Shown here piece by piece: positions 778 through 51,804 of a stretch of 64,000 bases of DNA (positions within the stretch are counted from its first letter, which is position 1; the number at the start of each line of letters is the position of its first letter). The notes under the pieces were generated by a model. That model was not told the DNA's origin and searched no databases. It saw only the letters and a list, made by a program, of their open reading frames with translations. A program made the position numbers and the translations under genes. This DNA is from Patescibacteria group bacterium (lineage in GTDB: Bacteria > Patescibacteriota > Patescibacteriia > UBA9570 > JAHJKD01), in the NCBI GenBank assembly GCA_043798935.1, contig JAZDOC010000019.1, forward strand, positions 74,322 to 138,321, read 5' to 3'.

Positions 778-3700
778 TTATATCATAAAGATGGCATCTT
801 TGCCAAGTACTTTTCGAATTTCACTAATAAGGCCAAAACTGGATTTCATCTTCGTGTCAATTTCATGATTATCAGAAATTAAATAAACCGGCAAACTTCC
901 AGGATTATTACTAATAGTACTCTTTATTTCCTCCAAAATGCTTTTTTTTATTGTTGCCGGTAAGCGAATAATAATTTTTGAAGGTATTTTAATTTTATCG
1001 ATGTCAAAACTAGATAATTTTTCAGCAATAACCTTTAACTCATTATCTTTATTTGAAACTTTGCCGTCAATAACTATCAAGCTATCTTCAACTAATAGAT
1101 AATTATATTCTTGAAACACTTTGGGAAAAATTAAAGCTTCGACCCAATTTTTTGTGTCTTCAATTCGCGCAAAAACCATGGGCTCGCCTTTGCGAGTAAA
1201 TATTTTTTTAAAACTAGATAATACGCCAATAATCCGAACATTCTGATTGATGCATTTTTTTAATTGTGAAATTGGAATCGAAATTTGATCCAAATAATCC
1301 TGATAATCGGCCAGGGGATGGGAAGAAATATATAAACCCATAAGTTCTTTTTCCCACAGTAATTTTTGTTTATTACTAGCCGGCACACTTTCCATTAAAG
1401 ATAATTTAGGCGCGTTGTCAACCGGCATTTGGCCAAAAATATTAATTTGTCCACTATTTTTTTCTTGTTGCGTAAAATGAACAAAATTTAATAAATTCTC
1501 TATATTATTAAGCATCTGACCGCGCTCACCAAACAAATCTAGAGCGCCAGATTTAATTAAACTTTCTAATGATTTTTTATTTAAATCTTTGTCGTTAATT
1601 CGAGTTAAAAAATCTTCGAGATTAATGAATGGTCCACTATCATTTCTTTCATCAATAATGATATCAACAATATGATTACCGACATTCTTAATAGCGGTTA
1701 GCCCAAAACGAATACGCGGTTTGCTATTAAGCGAACTTTTTACCACTGTAAAGCGTGAATAGCTTTCATTTATATCCGGTGGTAAAACATCAATGTTCAT
1801 TTGGCTGGCTTCTTGGGCTTCAATGGCAATGCGATCCGAATCGCCATAATCACTAGTTAAAAGTGCAGCCATAAATTGTGCCGGCCAGTGTGTTTTTAAA
1901 TAGGCCGTTTGGTAGGCGATCATAGCGTAGCAAGCTGCGTGCGACCGATTAAAGCCATATCCGGCAAATGGTTCGATAAAATCAAAAACTTTTTCGGCAA
2001 TATTTTTAGAAACATTATTTTTAACACAACCCTCTATAAATTTGATTTTTTGTTCAGCTAACAACTGCGGTATTTTTTTGGCCACAGCTTTACGTAATAC
2101 ATCAGCTTCTCCGAGTGTAAAACCAGCTAAATCTCTGGCCGTTTGCATAATTTGCTCCTGATAAATAGCCACGCCATAAGTTTTATCTAACACATGCTTT
2201 AATTTGGGATGAATATATTGTGGCTGTTTTTTTCCGTGTTTACCGGCAATATAATCAGGAATCCACTCCATCGGGCCGGGTCGATACAAAGCGACCATAG
2301 CAATAATATCTTCAAATTCAGTGGGCTTCAATTCTTTAAGATAACGTTTCATGCCTGAACTTTCAAGTTGAAAAACGCCGGTGGTTTGCGCTTTTTGAAG
2401 AAGTTTAAATGTTTGTTTGTCATCAAGGGGAATGCTGTCCATTTTAATTTCTTCACCAATGGTTTTAGTAATAATATTAATTGTGTTTTCGATAATAGTT
2501 AAGTTTTTTAAACCTAAAAAATCCATTTTTAATAATCCTAAATCTTCGCAAGGATGAAGCGAGTATTGAGTAATTATTTCACGATCGTCTGAAGATGCGT
2601 ATTGAATGGGTGTATAATAATCTAATGGTTTATTGGTAATAATAACGCCACAAGCATGAGTACTAGAATGCCTAGCCACACCTTCCAATTTTTTTGCACT
2701 GTCCAATAAACGCGCAGCATCGGGATCACTAGTATAAACTTCTTTTAATTCTGGAACTTGTTTAGTGGCTTTTGTTAAATTAGTAAACATGGGAATCATT
2801 TTGGCAATTTTATCGCAATAACCGTAAGACAGTCCCATCACGCGTCCAACATCACGCACTGCCGCTCGCGCCGCCATGGTTCCAAACGTAATAATCTGTG
2901 ATACATGATCTTTACCATATTTATTTTCAACATAATTAATAACTTCATTGCGTCTGATATCAGCAAAATCAAGATCAATATCGGGCATGGATATTCTTTC
3001 CGGATTTAAAAATCGTTCAAATAACAAATCATATTTGATCGGATCGATGTCGGTAATTTGGGTAAGGTAGGCTACAATGCTTCCGGCTGCCGAACCACGA
3101 CCCGGACCAACCACAATTTTATTTTTTTTTGCCCAAGTAACAAAATCTTGCACAATTAAAAAGTAAGAAGCAAAACCGGTTTTATTAATTACCCCTAGTT
3201 CATAGTCTAAGCGGGCTAATATTTCCGAACTGATTTTATCGCCATAGCGAACACTTAATCCTTCATTACAAAGGCGTTTTAATTCGTGGTCAGCTGTGAT
3301 ACCACTAGGCAATTGATAATGTGGTAAATGAATTTTTCCTAATTCCAATTTCACATCACAACGACTGGCTAATTCAATAGTATTTTCAATTACTTCTGGA
3401 TGCTCTTTGAACGCAGTTTTCATTTCGCTAACAGATTTAAATGAATAATCTTCACCGCGCATCGACATTCGATTCGTATCGGTAAGTTGTTTTTTGGTTT
3501 GGATACAAACTAAAATATCCTGCTCTTCATCATCCGAAGAATTGATGTAATGAACATCGTTTGTAGCCACAACTTTCAATTGCAATTTTTTTGCCAATTT
3601 AAAAATAACATCATTAGCTACTTGTTGCTTGGATAAATTAGGATGATGTTGAACTTCTAAATAAAAATTTTCAATTCCAAAAACATTAATATATTGCTTG

Positions 3701-20520: not shown

Positions 20521-21057
20521 TTATTCAGTATATCTCTTTACTAAAAATCGATATAAAGCTATTTGTTCTTTTTGCAGATTAATATATCCTTTTTGGGCAG
20601 TAATTTCTAATTGTTGGTCAACGGTATCAACTCCATCAAGCAAGGGGAGTAACAATGCAGATTTACGATTGTCTGGTGTTTGCATAAATATTCCATATTT
20701 CTTAGGATTTAATTTCTTAATATCCATAACTTGTTCTAATTCTCCTAAAACATCTACCGAAATATTTATATTACTTAATTCTGTTTGTTTTAAAGGTAAA
20801 AAACGCGGATCATAAAAAGCAGCCGAAACTGCATTATGAATTATTTCCAAAGCAACGCAAGACATTACCGGTTTGAATGTTCCGATACATCCCTGTAAAT
20901 CATGGTTAATATTATTATGCAAAGAAACAAAAACGCCAGCTTGTTTAGTCTTTAATTTACTTGGTACATCTTGCAAAGAAGACAAGGTCTTTTTATTCAC
21001 CAAATAATATTCAATGCTTTGACGCGCCAATTTGCAATAATCTAATTTTTTTTTCAT
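20521..21057 (-). CDS. AMMECR1-domain protein (AmmeMemoRadiSam system protein A)
   Basis: 178 aa with the AMMECR1 signature LQGCIGTF. Stop/start abut the Memo-like gene. Confidence 0.75.
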   Translation of the reverse strand: MKKKLDYCKLARQSIEYYLVNKKTLSSLQDVPSKLKTKQAGVFVSLHNNINHDLQGCIGTFKPVMSCVALEIIHNAVSAAFYDPRFLPLKQTELSNINISVDVLGELEQVMDIKKLNPKKYGIFMQTPDNRKSALLLPLLDGVDTVDQQLEITAQKGYINLQKEQIALYRFLVKRYTE

Positions 21058-21059
21058 GG

Positions 21060-21854
21060 TTAGCTTAAAACAAATTCTCCAACTAAATAACCAACGCCGA
21101 ATGGACCTTCATAAGATAATTTTTTAAATTTAAAATCCACTTTTTTTAATGCGCCGAGTAATATCAATAACGAACGATAGCCACATTCACCAGCCGACTC
21201 AATTAATTCTGGGCTGATTTTAACAATTTCATCAATTTTATTTTGTTCTAACAATTGAATAAGTAAATGATCAAAAGTTTGACCATTTGAATTAAATCCA
21301 CCTGGGGCGCTTTCAGACAAGCAGTGCGATAAATCTCCGGACGCAATAATAGCAATACGTTTATTGCTTTCACCGGCTACTTTTTGTAAAAGCATACCGA
21401 ATTTAATATGAGCGTTTTTATCGAGTAAGCTAAAACTAATAGGTATAATCTTAACATTGGGTAAATGTTGAGTAAGAAAATATAAAGGTACGCAAACGCC
21501 GTGATCAAGAATTGGTTGGCTGATAGTGTTGACGGCTACATTTTCCAGATCAGCTCGTTCTTTTATTTTGCTCATAAGCTCTAAATCACATTTCCAGGTC
21601 AATTCTTTTTCGTTTGAACCAAATTTAGAAAAATCACTTTTAAATTCAATAGCCAAATTTAAAGAAAAAGCTTCCGGAGTTATTAAGCTATGCGGGGAAA
21701 TTATAAAAATTATTTCCGGTTGCAAAACATATAAATCTCCTTCCATTTCATGAAATGCCGAGATTGTATCGCTTACCTTATTGGTTTCTTCTTTGCCAAT
21801 ATCAGGTATTAGAATTGGTGGATGCGGTGCTAGCCCGCTAAAAATAAAAGACAT
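21060..21854 (-). CDS. Memo1-like protein (AmmeMemoRadiSam system protein B)
   Basis: 264 aa with the Memo-family His/Asp blocks IISPHSL, LDHGVCVPLYFL and ASGDLSHCL. Confidence 0.75.
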   Translation of the reverse strand: MSFIFSGLAPHPPILIPDIGKEETNKVSDTISAFHEMEGDLYVLQPEIIFIISPHSLITPEAFSLNLAIEFKSDFSKFGSNEKELTWKCDLELMSKIKERADLENVAVNTISQPILDHGVCVPLYFLTQHLPNVKIIPISFSLLDKNAHIKFGMLLQKVAGESNKRIAIIASGDLSHCLSESAPGGFNSNGQTFDHLLIQLLEQNKIDEIVKISPELIESAGECGYRSLLILLGALKKVDFKFKKLSYEGPFGVGYLVGEFVLS

Positions 21855-21863
21855 ATGGATATA

Positions 21864-23289
21864 TTATTTTTTAGTTTTTTTCTTCTTGGTAGAAGGCAGT
21901 TTAACTGGTTTTCCTTTGTCGTGCAATTTTAATACTTGATCAGTAGTATGAATAACATTTTCCCATTTATACCCCAATTTATTAAATGCCTTGGCTGAAA
22001 CAAATGGTCTTTTTTTGCCTTTGTCGATTAGATAGACTGCATTACTACCAGGTGAAGTAACGATCTCACCATTAGCGAATTTAACTGGCTGTCCGTTAGA
22101 ATAAGAATTAATTTCCGATGCATCTTTAGGAAAAATAGTAACTCCTTTAAATTTACTGTCTAAAATTTCTTTAGACCAAATTTCTTGTTTTTTATTGTTT
22201 TTATTTATAAAAACAACTGCACCGGTTTGTTTATACTGAGCTAAAAATCCCACTGTTGTAACATCTTGTTCCATTATTAATTGACCATCAGGAATATTGG
22301 ATAAATCAGTCCACGAAGCTGGTAAAGCTTCTTCGGGATTATAGCCTAAATTTCTAAAAATTTCACGCGAAGTGATACCTCTTTTTTTTTCCGTCAATAT
22401 AAAGAAACATGGCGCCACTCGGAGCTTGAAGCAAAGTATAATTAGGGAATAAAATCGAAGCGCCCACATCGTATTGATCAAGTACGTTTTCATTGACGGC
22501 AATGGTTTTATTAATATCATAATTAGCCATTAAAGCGCCTAAAGAATTAAAGGCCATTTTCTTGTTATTCTTAATCAGATAAGTTATGCCACTATCCTGA
22601 CTTTTAAGTATTGAACCACTGGGATATTTATTAATTTCACTGTTAAAACCAAACCACTTTTTCCAAATATCCCAGAATAAAGAATTTCCGCCCACACTAG
22701 AATTTCCACCATGATATCCAATCCAGGGGGTATAAGTATAAAGCACGGCTGTAGCCTGATTGGCTGGTGTCACAGTCCCGTCACCGGTATTTTTAGTTAT
22801 GCCGATACCCCAACCAGATATAGTTGAATTTTTTGCGCTTAAATCAGTTAAATAGCTATTTCTAATTTTATTAGCGGCCGCATCAATTTGATTGGCAAAA
22901 CCAGCATATTCTCGGGAACAGCCGCCGCCATCAGGACAACCAAATCCTAAGGCCTGATCCAATAAACTATTAGTAACTGTTTTTCTAGTAACTAAACTGG
23001 CTTCTTTTTGTAATGTGGCTAAAATAAATTTCGGATTCAATACGTAACGTTGGCAGGAATTATATATAATTTGTGCAGCCGATTTAGTTTTGCCGTCAAT
23101 GTCTTTAGTTGAATAATTGGCTAAAACACCATTTTGTGTTTTTAAAAAATCTGATATTCGACTAAGCGTCATATCGTTTTTATCAGTGAGTTCAGCCGTG
23201 GTTAATATATTATTTTTATTAAAACTACTAGCCAGAGAAACTACTGGAAAAATGAAAATCAAAATTAATAATAAATATTTTTTCATCAT
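21864..23289 (-). pseudogene. secreted hypothetical protein gene split by a frameshift in an A9 homopolymer (two overlapping ORFs, 22363..23325 and 21864..22520)
   Basis: The N-terminal ORF has a signal peptide (MMKKYLLLILIFIFPVVSLASS). It ends ...FLYIDGKKKRYHFA* just after the A9 run, while the -1 frame continues ...TEKKRGITSREIF... for 175 more aa. One fewer A would give a single ~475-aa ORF. Confidence 0.5.
22382..22390. repeat. T9/A9 homopolymer tract at the frameshift site
   Basis: cTTTTTTTTTcc on the + strand, which is GGAAAAAAAAAGAGG on the coding strand. It coincides with the frame switch between the two overlapping ORFs. Confidence 0.9.
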
Positions 23290-24302
23290 AAAATAATGTC
23301 TAATGTTTGCCCACATTTTGGACACGATCCATTGATAAAAAAACAGGCTGTTTCATAGTTCTTACGATTAATAACTACTGTGCCACATTTAGGACAATGC
23401 GTATTTTCTAAATCTTCATCCCAAACATTACCGGCATAAATATTTTTCAAGCCGATTTTTTTTCCGCATGCAATTGCATCTTTAATAGTATTAATTGGGG
23501 TAGGGAATAGATTTTGCAGTTTATAAGATATTTCAGGTGAAAACCTGGAAACATGCCATGGAGTTTCAGCACCAAGTTCATTAAATATAAATTCGACTAT
23601 TTTACAAAAACCACCGCTTCTTTCGGTAATATCAGGAATTACTAACGTTGTTACTTCAACCCAAACACCTTGTTGTTTTAAATATTTTAAATTATCAAGT
23701 ACGGGCTGTAATTTGGCTCCACAAAATTTAGAATATAATTTATCATCAAAAAATTTTAAATCAATATTAATAGCGTCCAGATATGGAATTATTAAATCAA
23801 GCGTTTTTTTACTCATAAATCCATTAGAGACCCAAATGTTTTTTAAATTTTCCTGTTTAGCTAGCCTCATTACGTCAAGAGCAAATTCTAAAAAAACAGT
23901 AGGTTCAGTATATGTTGCTGCAACGCTATCGCAATTATTTTTTTTAGCTTCATGGACAATTTGTTCAGGAGTTCTATCTTGACCAATAATGCCGCCTTTT
24001 TGTAATTTTGGATACTGAGAAATTTGCCAATTTTGACAATTGTCACAACGTAAATTACACCCCACAGTCGCGTAAGAATACGTTTGCGAACCGGGTAAAA
24101 AATGAAAAAAAGGTTTCTTTTCGATTGGATCAACGGCTTCGGAAACAACTTTACCATATACCAAACTAAATAATTTTTGGTTAATATTTTGCCGAACACC
24201 ACAAAACCCAGCTTTATTTTCACTAATAAAGCATTCGTGTGCACATGTATGACACTGAACTTTATTTTGATTAAGTTTTGTATATAACAATGATTCCTTC
24301 AT
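23286..24302 (-). CDS. AmmeMemoRadiSam system radical SAM enzyme
   Basis: 338 aa. N-terminal Cys cluster (CHTCAHEC...C), canonical radical SAM CxxxCxxC (GCNLRCDNCQNW) and C-terminal CxxC pairs. Confidence 0.8.
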   Translation of the reverse strand: MKESLLYTKLNQNKVQCHTCAHECFISENKAGFCGVRQNINQKLFSLVYGKVVSEAVDPIEKKPFFHFLPGSQTYSYATVGCNLRCDNCQNWQISQYPKLQKGGIIGQDRTPEQIVHEAKKNNCDSVAATYTEPTVFLEFALDVMRLAKQENLKNIWVSNGFMSKKTLDLIIPYLDAINIDLKFFDDKLYSKFCGAKLQPVLDNLKYLKQQGVWVEVTTLVIPDITERSGGFCKIVEFIFNELGAETPWHVSRFSPEISYKLQNLFPTPINTIKDAIACGKKIGLKNIYAGNVWDEDLENTHCPKCGTVVINRKNYETACFFINGSCPKCGQTLDIIL

Positions 24303-24343: not shown

Positions 24344-25072
24344 TTACACTGCTATATCATAAGGCTCCTGTTCTTCTACTCCTCGTTCAATTTCATCACT
24401 TTTTTCAGCTTGATATTTATTGTTTTTTTCAAGTGTAACTGGTTGTTTTTTAACTTCACATTCCATAAAATGTAATTCAACTCCTTGCTTTTTTGCTGTA
24501 AAACCAAGCGTTGTTTCACGACCTTCAATCACTTGTTTGATTTCAACGATTTCATAGCCATTTACTTTCTCTTGTCCTGTAAAAGCATCTTTTAGTTCAT
24601 GTAAACAATTCTCTGAAACCATAAAATAATACCCATTACCACTATTTTTCTCAACTGGAGTCTCGTCATTAATGGTTTCACTCATAACCATAAATACTTC
24701 ATCTGGGTATTCATGCAATAAATCAGCAACCAAGTCCATTTCTGCATCGGTGAATGCATCGTCACCATGTAAATTCTCTTCAGCAGTGTCTACTCGATCA
24801 ATTGCACCGGCTTCAAAGAGACCAGTCTTCATTTCACGATCATGTTCAGCTTTCATTAAAGCCTTTATATGTTGAATATCGTTAGGAGTGAAATCGCGCA
24901 AGCTAACCTCATCACCATTATTTAAACGGCCTCTCTCCACGCCATTCTCACGCCATGTTTGAATTTTTGTTGCAAATTGTTCTGTATTATTTCCCTTGCG
25001 ATGTTCCACTGCTGCTTTTTCGAAAGCCATGGATTTTAAATTTGGATTGCTCATAAATTTTATTTTAATCAA
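24344..25072 (-). CDS. acidic hypothetical protein, compositionally atypical (GC-elevated)
   Basis: 242 aa, D/E/A/G-rich and K/N/I-poor, unlike neighbouring proteins. Sampled 60-mers at 24720-24960 are 42-48% GC against ~30% in the flanks. True start may be MSNPNL (25054). Confidence 0.5.
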   Translation of the reverse strand: MIKIKFMSNPNLKSMAFEKAAVEHRKGNNTEQFATKIQTWRENGVERGRLNNGDEVSLRDFTPNDIQHIKALMKAEHDREMKTGLFEAGAIDRVDTAEENLHGDDAFTDAEMDLVADLLHEYPDEVFMVMSETINDETPVEKNSGNGYYFMVSENCLHELKDAFTGQEKVNGYEIVEIKQVIEGRETTLGFTAKKQGVELHFMECEVKKQPVTLEKNNKYQAEKSDEIERGVEEQEPYDIAV

Positions 25073-49039: not shown

Positions 49040-50995
49040 CTATTTTAATTGAATTTTTATGCTTTTATCTGTGCGTAAATCTCCACTCAGTTGCACTTTA
49101 TTATTATCCATTTCAGCATTTAAGTCAAGAGCACTAATTTCTTTAATAGATTGCCCAATGTCAAAATTTATTGTTAATCCATGATTTAAAGTACCCGCTT
49201 GTTTCTGGATATATAATTGATATTCATTATTTGAAATTAAATTTTTAATTTCTAACGGCAATTTATAAGTTAAAACAATCTGCTCCTGTGCTTTTGGCTC
49301 AATTGCAATAAAACCTTCAAACACAGTTTTGTTTAATTCCTCATCTTGTTTGACCAAAGCCGCGGTAGGAGTGCCTCCTTTTAATTTATCGTTCGTCATG
49401 AAACCGGTGGATGATATTAATTCACTCCCCAGCGGCACATAAATTCTGGCATAGCTTCGATAACGCGTTGTGGTATTAGAAAAAGTTCCATTATTCTGAT
49501 ACGTTGCTGTTAATGTTGCAATCAAATCCTCGCCATTCTTACTTAATTTATAATCTATTGATCGATCCATTACTTTATCTGTTTTTAATGCTGCCATATT
49601 ACTATCGACGAGCATTATAAAATCTTCGCCTGTATATTCTTGATCACGAACACTGCCGTCCCACTTTAAAGTCGTAATATATTTCTGCACTTCTTCATTC
49701 TTAAAAGATAATAAAATATGTTTCTCATTAGCATCTTGATTAATCATGTTCCAAACATCTCCCCACTTCTCTTTGGGTAAATTTAATATTCGATCCATGA
49801 GTATAGTTGCCAATTCGCTGATAATGTCTTTTCTTTCAGCATCTGACTCGCCCGCAGCTTGATATCTAAATTCTACCCGTTGCTGTAATTTGTCGATAAA
49901 ATTCTCCTCATTATATTCCTCTCCTTCGATTTCTATAGCACCGGTTAATTTAACCAGAGACAAAATAAATTCCGGATCGACAGCAATCACCGCGTCTATA
50001 TTCTGTTCAGCACCATTTTCTAAGTGATATAATTCTTCAGTTTTATTGGCTGAAGTCGGAAAATCTGGCGACCAATTAGCATCACGCATGTACATGGCTT
50101 TAGCATCAACATATTTCGCAAATTCATCTTGTGGTGGTAAAAATAAAAACTGCTCAGCTGGCCCATCCAGATTATAAATATTATCAGTATCAAAATAACT
50201 TATTTCAGCCGAATCAAATTTTAAAATTCCGTAAGTTCCAACAAATCCGCCAGTTGCGCGTAGCTCAGTATTATTTTGCAATAAAAATAAATAAGTAGTT
50301 TCATCTGGATAACCTAATGCACTTGGCAAAACTTCAACTAATGGTAAGGCTTTAGAAGTTAATTCTTTAATTAAAGGTAAATTATCGTTAATTGGTGCCA
50401 AAGCATCTCGCAAAGGCTTTACAAGTCCTTTTTCCGGAATTTGTTCCAAATCGAATAGGGCTAAATTTAATTTATCCGTTGATTGCTTAATAGTATCGGG
50501 TGAATTGTAAAGTTTTTCAAGAATCTGTCTTTTCTTGGCTTTACTAATCGAATTAAATGTTGTTTCTGCCCCATCAAGCTTCAAAATATTAGCAATATCT
50601 TCACCAAGCAAAGATAAGTCTTCAAGTCCATCTGCAATACTAATACCTGCCAATAATAAATGATTAACAGCCATAAATTGCTTACCTGCAAAGGGTGCGC
50701 TTTCTACCCAGCTGTATTTTTCCATAATCTGGCTAGCGGTTGAAAAATGCTCTGCAGCCTGATTCAGTTCGGTAGCCATCATCGCAAAATTTTGCTCTTT
50801 AATGGCTTGTTGAGCATTAGTAAAATTATTCTTGCCATCTATTGCTTCTTGATATAAAGAATTAAAATTTTTGTAATTCAATAAACCAAAAATTAATATT
50901 ATTAAAACTATTACGCCAACAATAATACTTATAACTTTTAAGCTCTTCTTTAATTTATAATGTTTATTTGCTTTTTTATCAATTGTTAATTTCAT
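49040..50995 (-). CDS. large membrane-anchored extracytoplasmic protein, DUF4012-like (tentative)
   Basis: 651 aa. Single N-terminal TM, long alpha-helical N-region, beta-rich C-region. Sits in the GT operon. Confidence 0.4.
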   Translation of the reverse strand: MKLTIDKKANKHYKLKKSLKVISIIVGVIVLIILIFGLLNYKNFNSLYQEAIDGKNNFTNAQQAIKEQNFAMMATELNQAAEHFSTASQIMEKYSWVESAPFAGKQFMAVNHLLLAGISIADGLEDLSLLGEDIANILKLDGAETTFNSISKAKKRQILEKLYNSPDTIKQSTDKLNLALFDLEQIPEKGLVKPLRDALAPINDNLPLIKELTSKALPLVEVLPSALGYPDETTYLFLLQNNTELRATGGFVGTYGILKFDSAEISYFDTDNIYNLDGPAEQFLFLPPQDEFAKYVDAKAMYMRDANWSPDFPTSANKTEELYHLENGAEQNIDAVIAVDPEFILSLVKLTGAIEIEGEEYNEENFIDKLQQRVEFRYQAAGESDAERKDIISELATILMDRILNLPKEKWGDVWNMINQDANEKHILLSFKNEEVQKYITTLKWDGSVRDQEYTGEDFIMLVDSNMAALKTDKVMDRSIDYKLSKNGEDLIATLTATYQNNGTFSNTTTRYRSYARIYVPLGSELISSTGFMTNDKLKGGTPTAALVKQDEELNKTVFEGFIAIEPKAQEQIVLTYKLPLEIKNLISNNEYQLYIQKQAGTLNHGLTINFDIGQSIKEISALDLNAEMDNNKVQLSGDLRTDKSIKIQLK

Positions 50996-51804
50996 TTTTT
51001 TTTATTTAGTTGTCTTTTTTTAGATAAATATTTAAGCCAATCTTTGATGTGAATTCGAGTAATGTAATTAAACAAACTTCCAAAACCTCCCCAAATACTT
51101 TTTTGCGCCGATTCGCGTTTATGATAATGAATGATCTTTGTATCATGATAATAATAAACTTTATAACCATTAGCACTGGCCCGATCGCATAATTCATAAT
51201 CAGCAAAGTACAGAAAAAAAATTTCATCAAACGCGCCGTATTTTTCAATAAACTTTTTTCTCAGTAACATGCATGCTCCTAAAATCCATTCCACGACAAT
51301 CGTTTCATTATGATTAAAATCGTTCATGAGATGATTATTTAAATCTCGCTTGGCAAATTTTAGCTTTCCCAACGGAGTACGTCGCCAAATTGGCGTAAAC
51401 AATGAATAGGAACGATAGCAAGATCTCTGGACACTACCATCACCATTTAAAAGCCTTGGGCCAACAATAGCAACTTTTGATTGCTGATCCATAAACTTCA
51501 GCAAATTTGATAAATCTTCACTGTTTTTAAAAATTATATCAGTATTAAGAATTAAAATATATTCCCCCTGCGCTTGTTTAATACCTAAATTATTACCTCG
51601 TGCATGCCCGCAGTTTATTTTGGATACAATTAATTTTATTTGCGGAAATTTTTCTTTCATCATATCCACTGAATCATCAACTGACGCATTGTCAACAACA
51701 ATTATTTCATAGGGAAAATCTAATTTTAAGGCAATTAAATTCTGCAAACATAAACGTAGCAAATTTTGAGTATTATAGTTTAAAATAATTATTGATAACT
51801 TCAT
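50992..51804 (-). CDS. family-2 glycosyltransferase
   Basis: 270 aa. N-terminal GT2 block LSIIILNYNTQNLL...IIVVDNASVDDS. Confidence 0.8.
   Translation of the reverse strand: MKLSIIILNYNTQNLLRLCLQNLIALKLDFPYEIIVVDNASVDDSVDMMKEKFPQIKLIVSKINCGHARGNNLGIKQAQGEYILILNTDIIFKNSEDLSNLLKFMDQQSKVAIVGPRLLNGDGSVQRSCYRSYSLFTPIWRRTPLGKLKFAKRDLNNHLMNDFNHNETIVVEWILGACMLLRKKFIEKYGAFDEIFFLYFADYELCDRASANGYKVYYYHDTKIIHYHKRESAQKSIWGGFGSLFNYITRIHIKDWLKYLSKKRQLNKKK

Follow-up and report, generated by a model that had tools for sequence, protein, structure and literature searches.

One extra A in a poly(A) tract breaks the frame of a conserved secreted-protein gene in a Patescibacteria genome

The question posed by this locus is how a gene that is conserved in at least 262 genomes comes to be read in two pieces in one of them, and whether the nucleotide responsible belongs to the DNA of the organism or to its assembled sequence. 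The locus lies in a stretch of 64,000 nucleotides (nt; 32% GC), hereafter the window, of a Patescibacteria genome (contig JAZDOC010000019.1), and all coordinates are positions in this window. Here a run of nine T residues on the plus strand (22382..22390) is read as A9 on the coding, minus strand, as GGAAAAAAAAAGAGG. The run falls inside the 158-nt overlap of two minus-strand open reading frames (ORFs), where the upstream ORF (22363..23325) ends in FLYIDGKKKRYHFA and a stop codon, and the downstream ORF (21864..22520) reads TEKKRGITSREIF and continues through to its own stop. An earlier note on the same DNA had described this overlap at the A run, and its coordinates and sequence were reproduced. 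When one A is removed from the run, a single ORF results, of 474 amino acids (aa) from the ATG at 23289 or of 486 aa from an upstream GTG. The central observation, which can be made firmly, is that the reading frame of a single conserved gene is broken by one extra A in an expected A8 tract. The elements of the interrupted gene are as follows.

21864..23289, minus strand: whole interrupted gene, 474 codons plus stop as a single ORF if A9 is read as A8
22363..23289, minus strand: upstream (zero-frame) segment, 308 codons plus stop, ending DGKKKRYHFA and stop
22382..22390, minus strand: A9 homopolymer, the frameshift site; in-frame state A8, GGA AAA AAA AGA GGT = G K K R G
22363..22365, minus strand: premature TGA of the zero frame, five codons past the A tract
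21864..22381, minus strand: downstream (+1-frame) segment, fully open, coding for residues 303-474 of the repaired protein and the stop

One gene behind two reading frames

What is the evidence that the two ORFs are parts of one gene? It comes principally from the relatives of the repaired 474-aa protein, which number 231. The 120 of these that are listed are nearly all 450-520 aa in length and align over 92-100% of the query, with E-values down to 5e-199, and the sole exception to full-length coverage among them is the window's own shortened entry. The fused protein spans the junction (..LYIDGKKRGITS..) gaplessly against more than 100 full-length homologs, so that the proposal of the earlier note, in which removal of one A restores a single secreted-protein gene, is borne out. 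In an alignment with 25 homologs the junction, LY-IDGKKRGITSREIFRN, lies against the consensus LY-VNGKKRGIxSxExFRxLGYNPEE with no gap and with R303 invariant, and because the junction aligns in this way A8 is, as judged from the alignment, the ancestral in-frame state of the tract. An A11 tract (+2) was also considered as the in-frame state and rejected, as it would insert a residue that none of the 25 aligned homologs has.

The same conclusion is reached at the level of the related loci. The earlier note had named, as a check, a comparison of orthologs for an uninterrupted ORF, and had given orthologs divided at the same point as an outcome that would speak against a frameshift. A one-genome-per-species scan identified 262 loci that encode a relative, of which 80 were fetched, and 84 loci were examined in total. 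Every one of the 84 returned one single-frame tblastn match, the entire length of which is covered by a stop-free ORF; none is split and none has the tract. At the aligned site the orthologs carry A runs of 1-7 nt, for instance GGA CAA AAA AGA GGT or GGA AAG AAA AGA GGC, and by this comparison the A9 tract appears specific to the lineage of the window. The nearest two orthologs, at loci L001 and L004 and with 64% and 60% identity, each form an unbroken ORF, of 484 and 472 aa respectively, and share the gene order of the window: radical SAM, the secreted-protein gene (with a 4-nt overlap), LigB/Memo-like, AMMECR1 and PriA. That no locus among the 84 is split removes a two-gene arrangement and makes a conserved programmed frameshift very unlikely.

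Two details of the reading frames follow from the coordinates and the gene order. The true start of the interrupted gene is most likely the ATG at 23289 and not the GTG at 23325; the start region reads ATGATGA, and the TGA stop of the preceding radical-SAM gene overlaps the ATG at 23289 (ATGA, a 4-nt overlap). The NCBI annotation likewise takes the upstream piece from the ATG at 23289, as a 308-aa hypothetical protein (MFH0819188.1, locus tag V1898_04300). With respect to the upstream ORF, the downstream one is shifted to frame +1 (or, equivalently, -2), since upstream codons start at 0 mod 3 and downstream codons at 2 mod 3 on a descending strand, and the -1 frame given for it in the earlier note is corrected here.

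Has the part of the gene beyond the break begun to decay? The 172 codons downstream of the tract are fully open. Taking the eight closest homologs, the ratio of identity after the site to identity before it is 0.86 for the window protein and 0.81 +/- 0.04 for homolog-homolog pairs. The window protein keeps 19 of 22 highly conserved columns downstream of the site and 51 of 54 upstream. With no downstream decay, either the lesion arose very recently, or it does not exist in the real DNA, or it is tolerated via some form of rescue. The losses of conserved columns, 3 of 22 downstream versus 3 of 54 upstream, differ by what looks, as judged by eye, too little for significance.

Architecture of the predicted product

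What kind of protein is interrupted? Pfam, NCBIfam and PDB sequence and profile searches with the window protein gave no match, and its likely nature is instead suggested by an AlphaFold model, built from a 26-sequence alignment, with a mean predicted local distance difference test score (pLDDT) of 84.5. On the strength of this model the product looks like a secreted enzyme of the lysozyme/GH73 type that carries four EccB-like repeats, arranged as follows.

23224..23289, minus strand: signal peptide, MMKKYLLLILIFIFPVVSLA followed by SS, read from the sequence; helix 3-18 in the model
22645..23217, minus strand: predicted N-terminal globular helical domain, lysozyme/GH73-like, approximately residues 25-215, from the model, weak Foldseek matches and invariant columns
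22447..22629, minus strand: predicted beta-repeat 1, EccB-like, residues 221-281
22266..22455, minus strand: predicted beta-repeat 2, residues 279-341, in which the A tract encodes the beta-hairpin turn DGKKRG
22080..22268, minus strand: predicted beta-repeat 3, residues 341-403, absent from the zero-frame product
21900..22082, minus strand: predicted beta-repeat 4, residues 403-463, absent from the zero-frame product, with a Lys-rich tail after it

A hydrophobic N-terminus like that of the window protein is found in all 25 aligned homologs. For the domain that follows, Foldseek returned Staphylococcus aureus AtlE, a Clostridium perfringens autolysin, Streptococcus pneumoniae LytB and g-type lysozymes, all as weak matches (E 7e-3 to 0.3) with probabilities of 0.85-1.0 and template-modelling (TM) scores to the target of 0.37-0.44. 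The likeness is thus to the fold of the GH73 N-acetylglucosaminidases, goose-type lysozymes and lytic transglycosylases (AtlE, Acp, LytB), with which the helical N-domain aligns, although the E-values for the window protein are marginal and there is no Pfam, NCBIfam or PDB match at the sequence level. The N-domain also has a Glu at a helix end, E96, which is invariant within an LQKE(S/A)SL motif in the 25-homolog alignment and which is, from its conservation, a candidate catalytic residue.

Each of the four beta-rich repeats is about 60 aa long and contains a hairpin of the form ..YLI-x-(N/G)-K-K.., and it is these Lys-Lys hairpins that, in an AT-rich genome, turn into the A runs of the gene. 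In a Foldseek search of the PDB they align with the periplasmic repeats of EccB (7nps, 4kk7, 3x3m; E 5e-7 to 4e-5), a component of type VII secretion. The corresponding Pfam family, PF05108, gives weak matches to 11 of 26 family members, with a best E-value of 4e-5, but none to the window protein, whose likeness to EccB is confined to the fold. The likeness to EccB1 and EccB5 structures lies in the four C-terminal repeats of about 60 aa, and because the correspondence is limited to these repeats the TM-scores are low (0.13); unlike EccB, the window protein has neither the transmembrane nor the central domain, and no ESX genes lie nearby. The zero-frame 308-aa product keeps the signal peptide, the enzyme-like domain and repeat 1 but ends halfway through repeat 2, so that repeats 3 and 4 are missing altogether.

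Some departures from the family consensus were seen in the window protein. At the start of repeat 3 (about 22250..22262, residues 343-346) it has TT in place of the YP seen in at least 90% of homologs, within a DxYPxGxLLQ motif, and in another conserved column a D is replaced by N. These substitutions might point to a relaxation of constraint in the C-terminal repeats.

Origin of the extra A

How, then, did the ninth A arise? The earlier note offered four candidate causes, among which it did not decide. A first consideration is how the tract compares with other homopolymers of the window. When 362 of these were each changed by +/-1 nt, only the A9 at 22382..22390 was found to join two halves of one gene, and together with the E-values of the homologs this places the split well outside chance expectation. 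Six other edits lengthened an ORF, of which those at 23337, 38954 and 50995 concern ordinary gene boundaries or stop/start overlaps; the remaining three lie in a short-ORF cluster at 60.6 kb, where inspection, made without homolog comparison, revealed no split gene. The window contains 46 A/T runs of length 8, six of length 9 and none of 10 or more, and all six 9-nt runs are of A on the coding strand, with the other five, at 3122, 10741, 21046, 28094 and 50995, in frame. Since the other long runs are frame-consistent, consensus errors at such runs are not systematic, and the consensus can be taken as generally accurate there.

The lengths of the runs are themselves informative. The number of A/T runs drops by a factor of 0.40-0.49 per base up to length 8 and then by 0.13 at length 9, such that six runs of length 9 are observed where about 21 are expected, and none of 10 or more where the expectation is about 17. 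A cliff of this kind, typically at 9 nt, is a signature of selection against slippage-prone runs, and it is unable to tell replication slippage from transcription slippage (Baranov et al. 2005, PMC1088944). The counts suggest that runs from 9 nt upwards, which are prone to slippage, are selected against in this Patescibacteria genome, and the cut-off would then be a small independent indication of such selection in bacteria of the candidate phyla radiation (CPR).

The reading that is favoured, and to which an approximately even chance is assigned, is that of a real, recent, non-programmed insertion by replication slippage, taking A8 to A9. It is preferred because the other long runs are clean, the assembly is probably of short-read origin, the contig is long, and such lesions are frequent in small AT-rich genomes (PMC3017870). 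An A8 tract, lying just under the 9-nt limit, would have gained one A through a single replication slip, and this insertion, presumably recent, would be present in the population sampled, or in a sub-population whose sequence the assembler took, so that the extra A would belong to the DNA and not to the assembly alone. Standard decoding would then give the 308-aa secreted product. A minority of full-length protein could nonetheless be made if RNA polymerase slips on the A9 template to give mRNAs with 8 or 11 A's. Ribosomes, too, slide on poly(A); were tRNA-Lys to slip by +1 in this tract, translation would likewise arrive at GKKRG. With a genuine A9, rescue of the full-length protein would probably be a minority outcome.

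There is precedent for a lesion of this kind. Genes whose ORFs are disrupted by 9A or 9T and whose homologs are single ORFs form a known class, and transcripts of Thermus dnaX vary in length on an A9 motif (PMC1088944). The present locus has the attributes of a homopolymer-disrupted ORF, in that there is a run of at least 9 at the junction, the homologs are single ORFs that a change in run length restores, and no downstream decay is seen. It shares with the 9A/9T class the same layout, namely an A9 at the junction of overlapping ORFs, a full-length homolog elsewhere and an ORF that slippage restores, together with the run-length cliff at 9; that class was drawn from finished isolate genomes, whereas the present case comes from a metagenome-assembled genome (MAG). 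In the reduced, AT-rich genomes of Buchnera and Blochmannia, as far as the account of Tamas et al. (2008, PNAS) in Williams & Wernegreen (2010, PMC3017870) goes, poly(A) frameshifts occur in otherwise intact genes, with about 30% full-length transcripts. On that account, the shared features are a 1-nt indel in a sense-strand poly(A) tract in a small AT-rich genome, a gene that is undecayed and otherwise in frame, intact homologs, and an ortholog tract that is broken by other bases. The differences, as they emerge from the same account, are that the frameshifts of Buchnera and Blochmannia are confirmed in DNA, sometimes conserved between species and accompanied by measured mRNA slippage, where the window case is known from an assembly alone, and that their tracts are often 10 nt or longer, where the window has none above 9. 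No paper on homopolymer frameshifts in Patescibacteria came up in a literature search, and the window case is at most another instance of the known poly(A)-frameshift class, in a phylum for which no report was found. Should the extra A be real, it would extend to Patescibacteria the poly(A)-tract frameshifts known from AT-rich reduced genomes, in which slippage by the polymerase is able to restore part of the expression, and it would suggest that the C-terminal wall-binding repeats of a widespread unnamed family are dispensable or tunable.

Several points weigh against a real insertion. Exact-protein look-ups of the neighbouring radical-SAM protein and of MFH0819188.1 gave no contigs, an exact DNA pattern spanning the tract, with A8 to A11 permitted, had no match in the JGI metagenomes, a protein-guided metagenome scan found relatives at 31-32% identity only, and in a search of 5.8 billion protein clusters the closest relative, the gene itself aside, was 64% identical. 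No second assembly of the organism was thus present in any collection searched. A consensus error would leave the downstream frame just as intact, and inactivation is somewhat unexpected for a gene found in at least 262 genomes at a fixed operon position. Rescue may be inefficient, because it needs a 1-nt deletion or a 2-nt insertion, and in transcription slippage within homopolymers it is single-nucleotide insertions that dominate (PMC5574713). Finally, the short-read origin of the assembly is itself deduced from a neighbouring locus-tag prefix. A protein with this prefix, V1853, is encoded exactly on JAZDMR010000009.1, titled 'isolate MEGAHIT-group-0.67 k141_...', and the MAG of the window is on this ground probably from the same short-read MEGAHIT batch.

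These considerations lead directly to the strongest alternative, a sequencing or assembly artefact, which is tentatively allowed a substantial, if minority, share of the probability. The DNA of the organism would on this account have A8 and an intact 474-aa gene, with the extra A in the deposited consensus alone, and the error could have taken the form of a homopolymer miscall or of a minority or erroneous path in a co-assembly. The source is indeed a MAG, probably from a grouped co-assembly, and the lesion is a single nucleotide in a homopolymer that ranks among the window's six longest, the kind of site at which consensus errors cluster. An artefact would further account for a downstream frame that is wholly open, with 19 of 22 conserved positions kept and no accelerated divergence, and for a gene that is intact in all 84 related loci. 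What counts against it is that the remaining 51 A/T runs of at least 8 nt and all other tested homopolymers are frame-consistent, so that errors are not systematic, and that, if the assembly was made from short reads with MEGAHIT, as the prefix suggests, a 9-nt run can comfortably be called correctly at the coverage that a contig of 176 kb requires; the source contig measures 175,932 bp. In short-read assembly at good depth, the miscall of a 9-nt homopolymer is uncommon.

An improbable alternative is that the tract is a phase-variable contingency locus, in which A8 (on) and A9 (off or shortened) interchange by replication slippage and the cell alternates between a four-repeat and an approximately 1.5-repeat form of a secreted, cell-wall-active protein. 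The product is predicted to be secreted or surface-active, the tract is at a length otherwise avoided by the genome, and the short form would, according to the model, keep the signal peptide and enzyme-like domain, so that the 'off' form could be a functional variant. Yet none of the 84 orthologous loci has the tract, its position is 63% along the ORF and not near the 5' end, and the genome avoids long runs rather than being enriched in them (at length 9, six against about 21 expected). For contingency loci, moreover, A runs of 8-9 nt are short and comparatively stable, which ill suits a switch.

Programmed recoding, in which the A9 is a normal signal at which transcriptional slippage or +1 ribosomal frameshifting yields both a short and a full-length protein, is given very little credence. 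The A9 on the sense strand is a classic bacterial slippage motif (PMC1088944), the zero-frame stop within five codons would define a short product, and the downstream frame is maintained. The motif length matches that of the Thermus thermophilus dnaX (A9) and Shigella flexneri mxiE sites of transcriptional slippage, with a stop soon after the run, and, as with mxiE, the longer product would depend on slippage. Utilised slippage sites are, however, conserved (PMC1088944), as those of dnaX and mxiE are, whereas the window tract is missing from every ortholog examined; the overlapping-ORF layout and the tract occur in none of the 84 orthologous loci, where the longest A run is 7. Neither conservation nor stimulatory elements, which mark utilised or programmed slippage, were found. 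For a stimulatory RNA structure, the 141 nt around the site (22320..22460) fold at -25 kcal/mol, with z = -0.22 relative to shuffled sequences; no Shine-Dalgarno-like element is present upstream of the tract in TATATTGACGG; and there is no stop or hungry/slow codon at the shift site, the zero-frame stop being five codons downstream. The RNA change that is needed (-1 or +2) is also the less favoured in homopolymers (PMC5574713).

A further reading, in which the A9 is real and acts in this lineage as a site of RNA- or DNA-level slippage that gives two secreted hydrolase-like forms, one with the enzyme-like domain and about 1.5 wall-binding repeats and one with all four, has only a slim chance of being correct. 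Were the site used in this way, Patescibacteria (CPR) genomes would gain their first documented case of rescue or recoding at a poly(A)-tract frameshift. The last possibility, that of two genuine overlapping genes that are separately translated, is suggested by the length of both ORFs and by the annotation of the upstream one as a protein in the public record, but can be dismissed as next to impossible given a single ORF in all 84 orthologous loci, a break that falls, in the model, inside a beta-hairpin of one structural repeat, upstream ATGs for the downstream ORF that lie only in the out-of-frame overlap, which codes for non-homologous sequence, and a downstream piece that, from any of three tried ATG starts, is not in the protein collection.

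These findings would not surprise a specialist, and their main value is practical: the 'hypothetical protein' MFH0819188.1 (308 aa) represents just the first two-thirds of a gene of 474 aa, and its record merits a frameshift flag or, after a check of the reads, correction.

The operon and other observations

The interrupted gene lies among genes of the AmmeMemoRadiSam system (TIGR04335/04336/04337), all three component genes of which exceed their curated cut-offs in the window.

23286..24302, minus strand: AmmeMemoRadiSam radical-SAM enzyme gene, TIGR04337, 319 bits (cut-off 220)
21060..21854, minus strand: LigB/Memo-like gene (AmmeMemoRadiSam protein B), 39.7 bits (cut-off 26), starting 9 nt past the interrupted gene
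20521..21057, minus strand: AMMECR1 / AmmeMemoRadiSam protein A gene, 116.9 bits (cut-off 99)

The interrupted gene is no defined component of the system and is here placed between the radical-SAM and B genes. How general is this arrangement? The Memo-like gene (protein B) is directly downstream of the family member in 71 of 78 related loci, and PriA is near it in 68 of 82, in contrast to a radical-SAM gene directly upstream in just 12 of 72 assessable loci and AMMECR1 in 14 of 82. Because of these frequencies the conserved unit is, on gene order, best taken as the secreted protein with the Memo-like protein (and PriA), rather than the whole three-gene cassette. The description of the gene as embedded, which the earlier note had used, therefore holds for the AmmeMemoRadiSam cassette of this window but does not extend to most other loci. 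A polar effect might also be envisaged, in that termination some 500 nt ahead of the close-set Memo-like, AMMECR1 and PriA genes could lower their expression. Directly upstream of the radical-SAM gene is an acidic 242-aa ORF (24344..25072, minus strand) with no Pfam match.

Many of the public MAG records behind the related loci (L006, L007, L010, L012 and others; TPA assemblies, accessions beginning CAY or CAZ) are titled 'uncultured Gammaproteobacteria bacterium' despite a Patescibacteria-type gene and synteny, and the titles look taxonomically mislabelled.

Elsewhere in the window, at 50992..51003, another A9 on the coding strand is placed exactly at a gene junction, AAAAAAAAATGA, where the upstream gene ends in KKK and a stop that the next ATG overlaps, such that slippage at this position would change both the C-terminus of the upstream protein and the coupling of the two genes.

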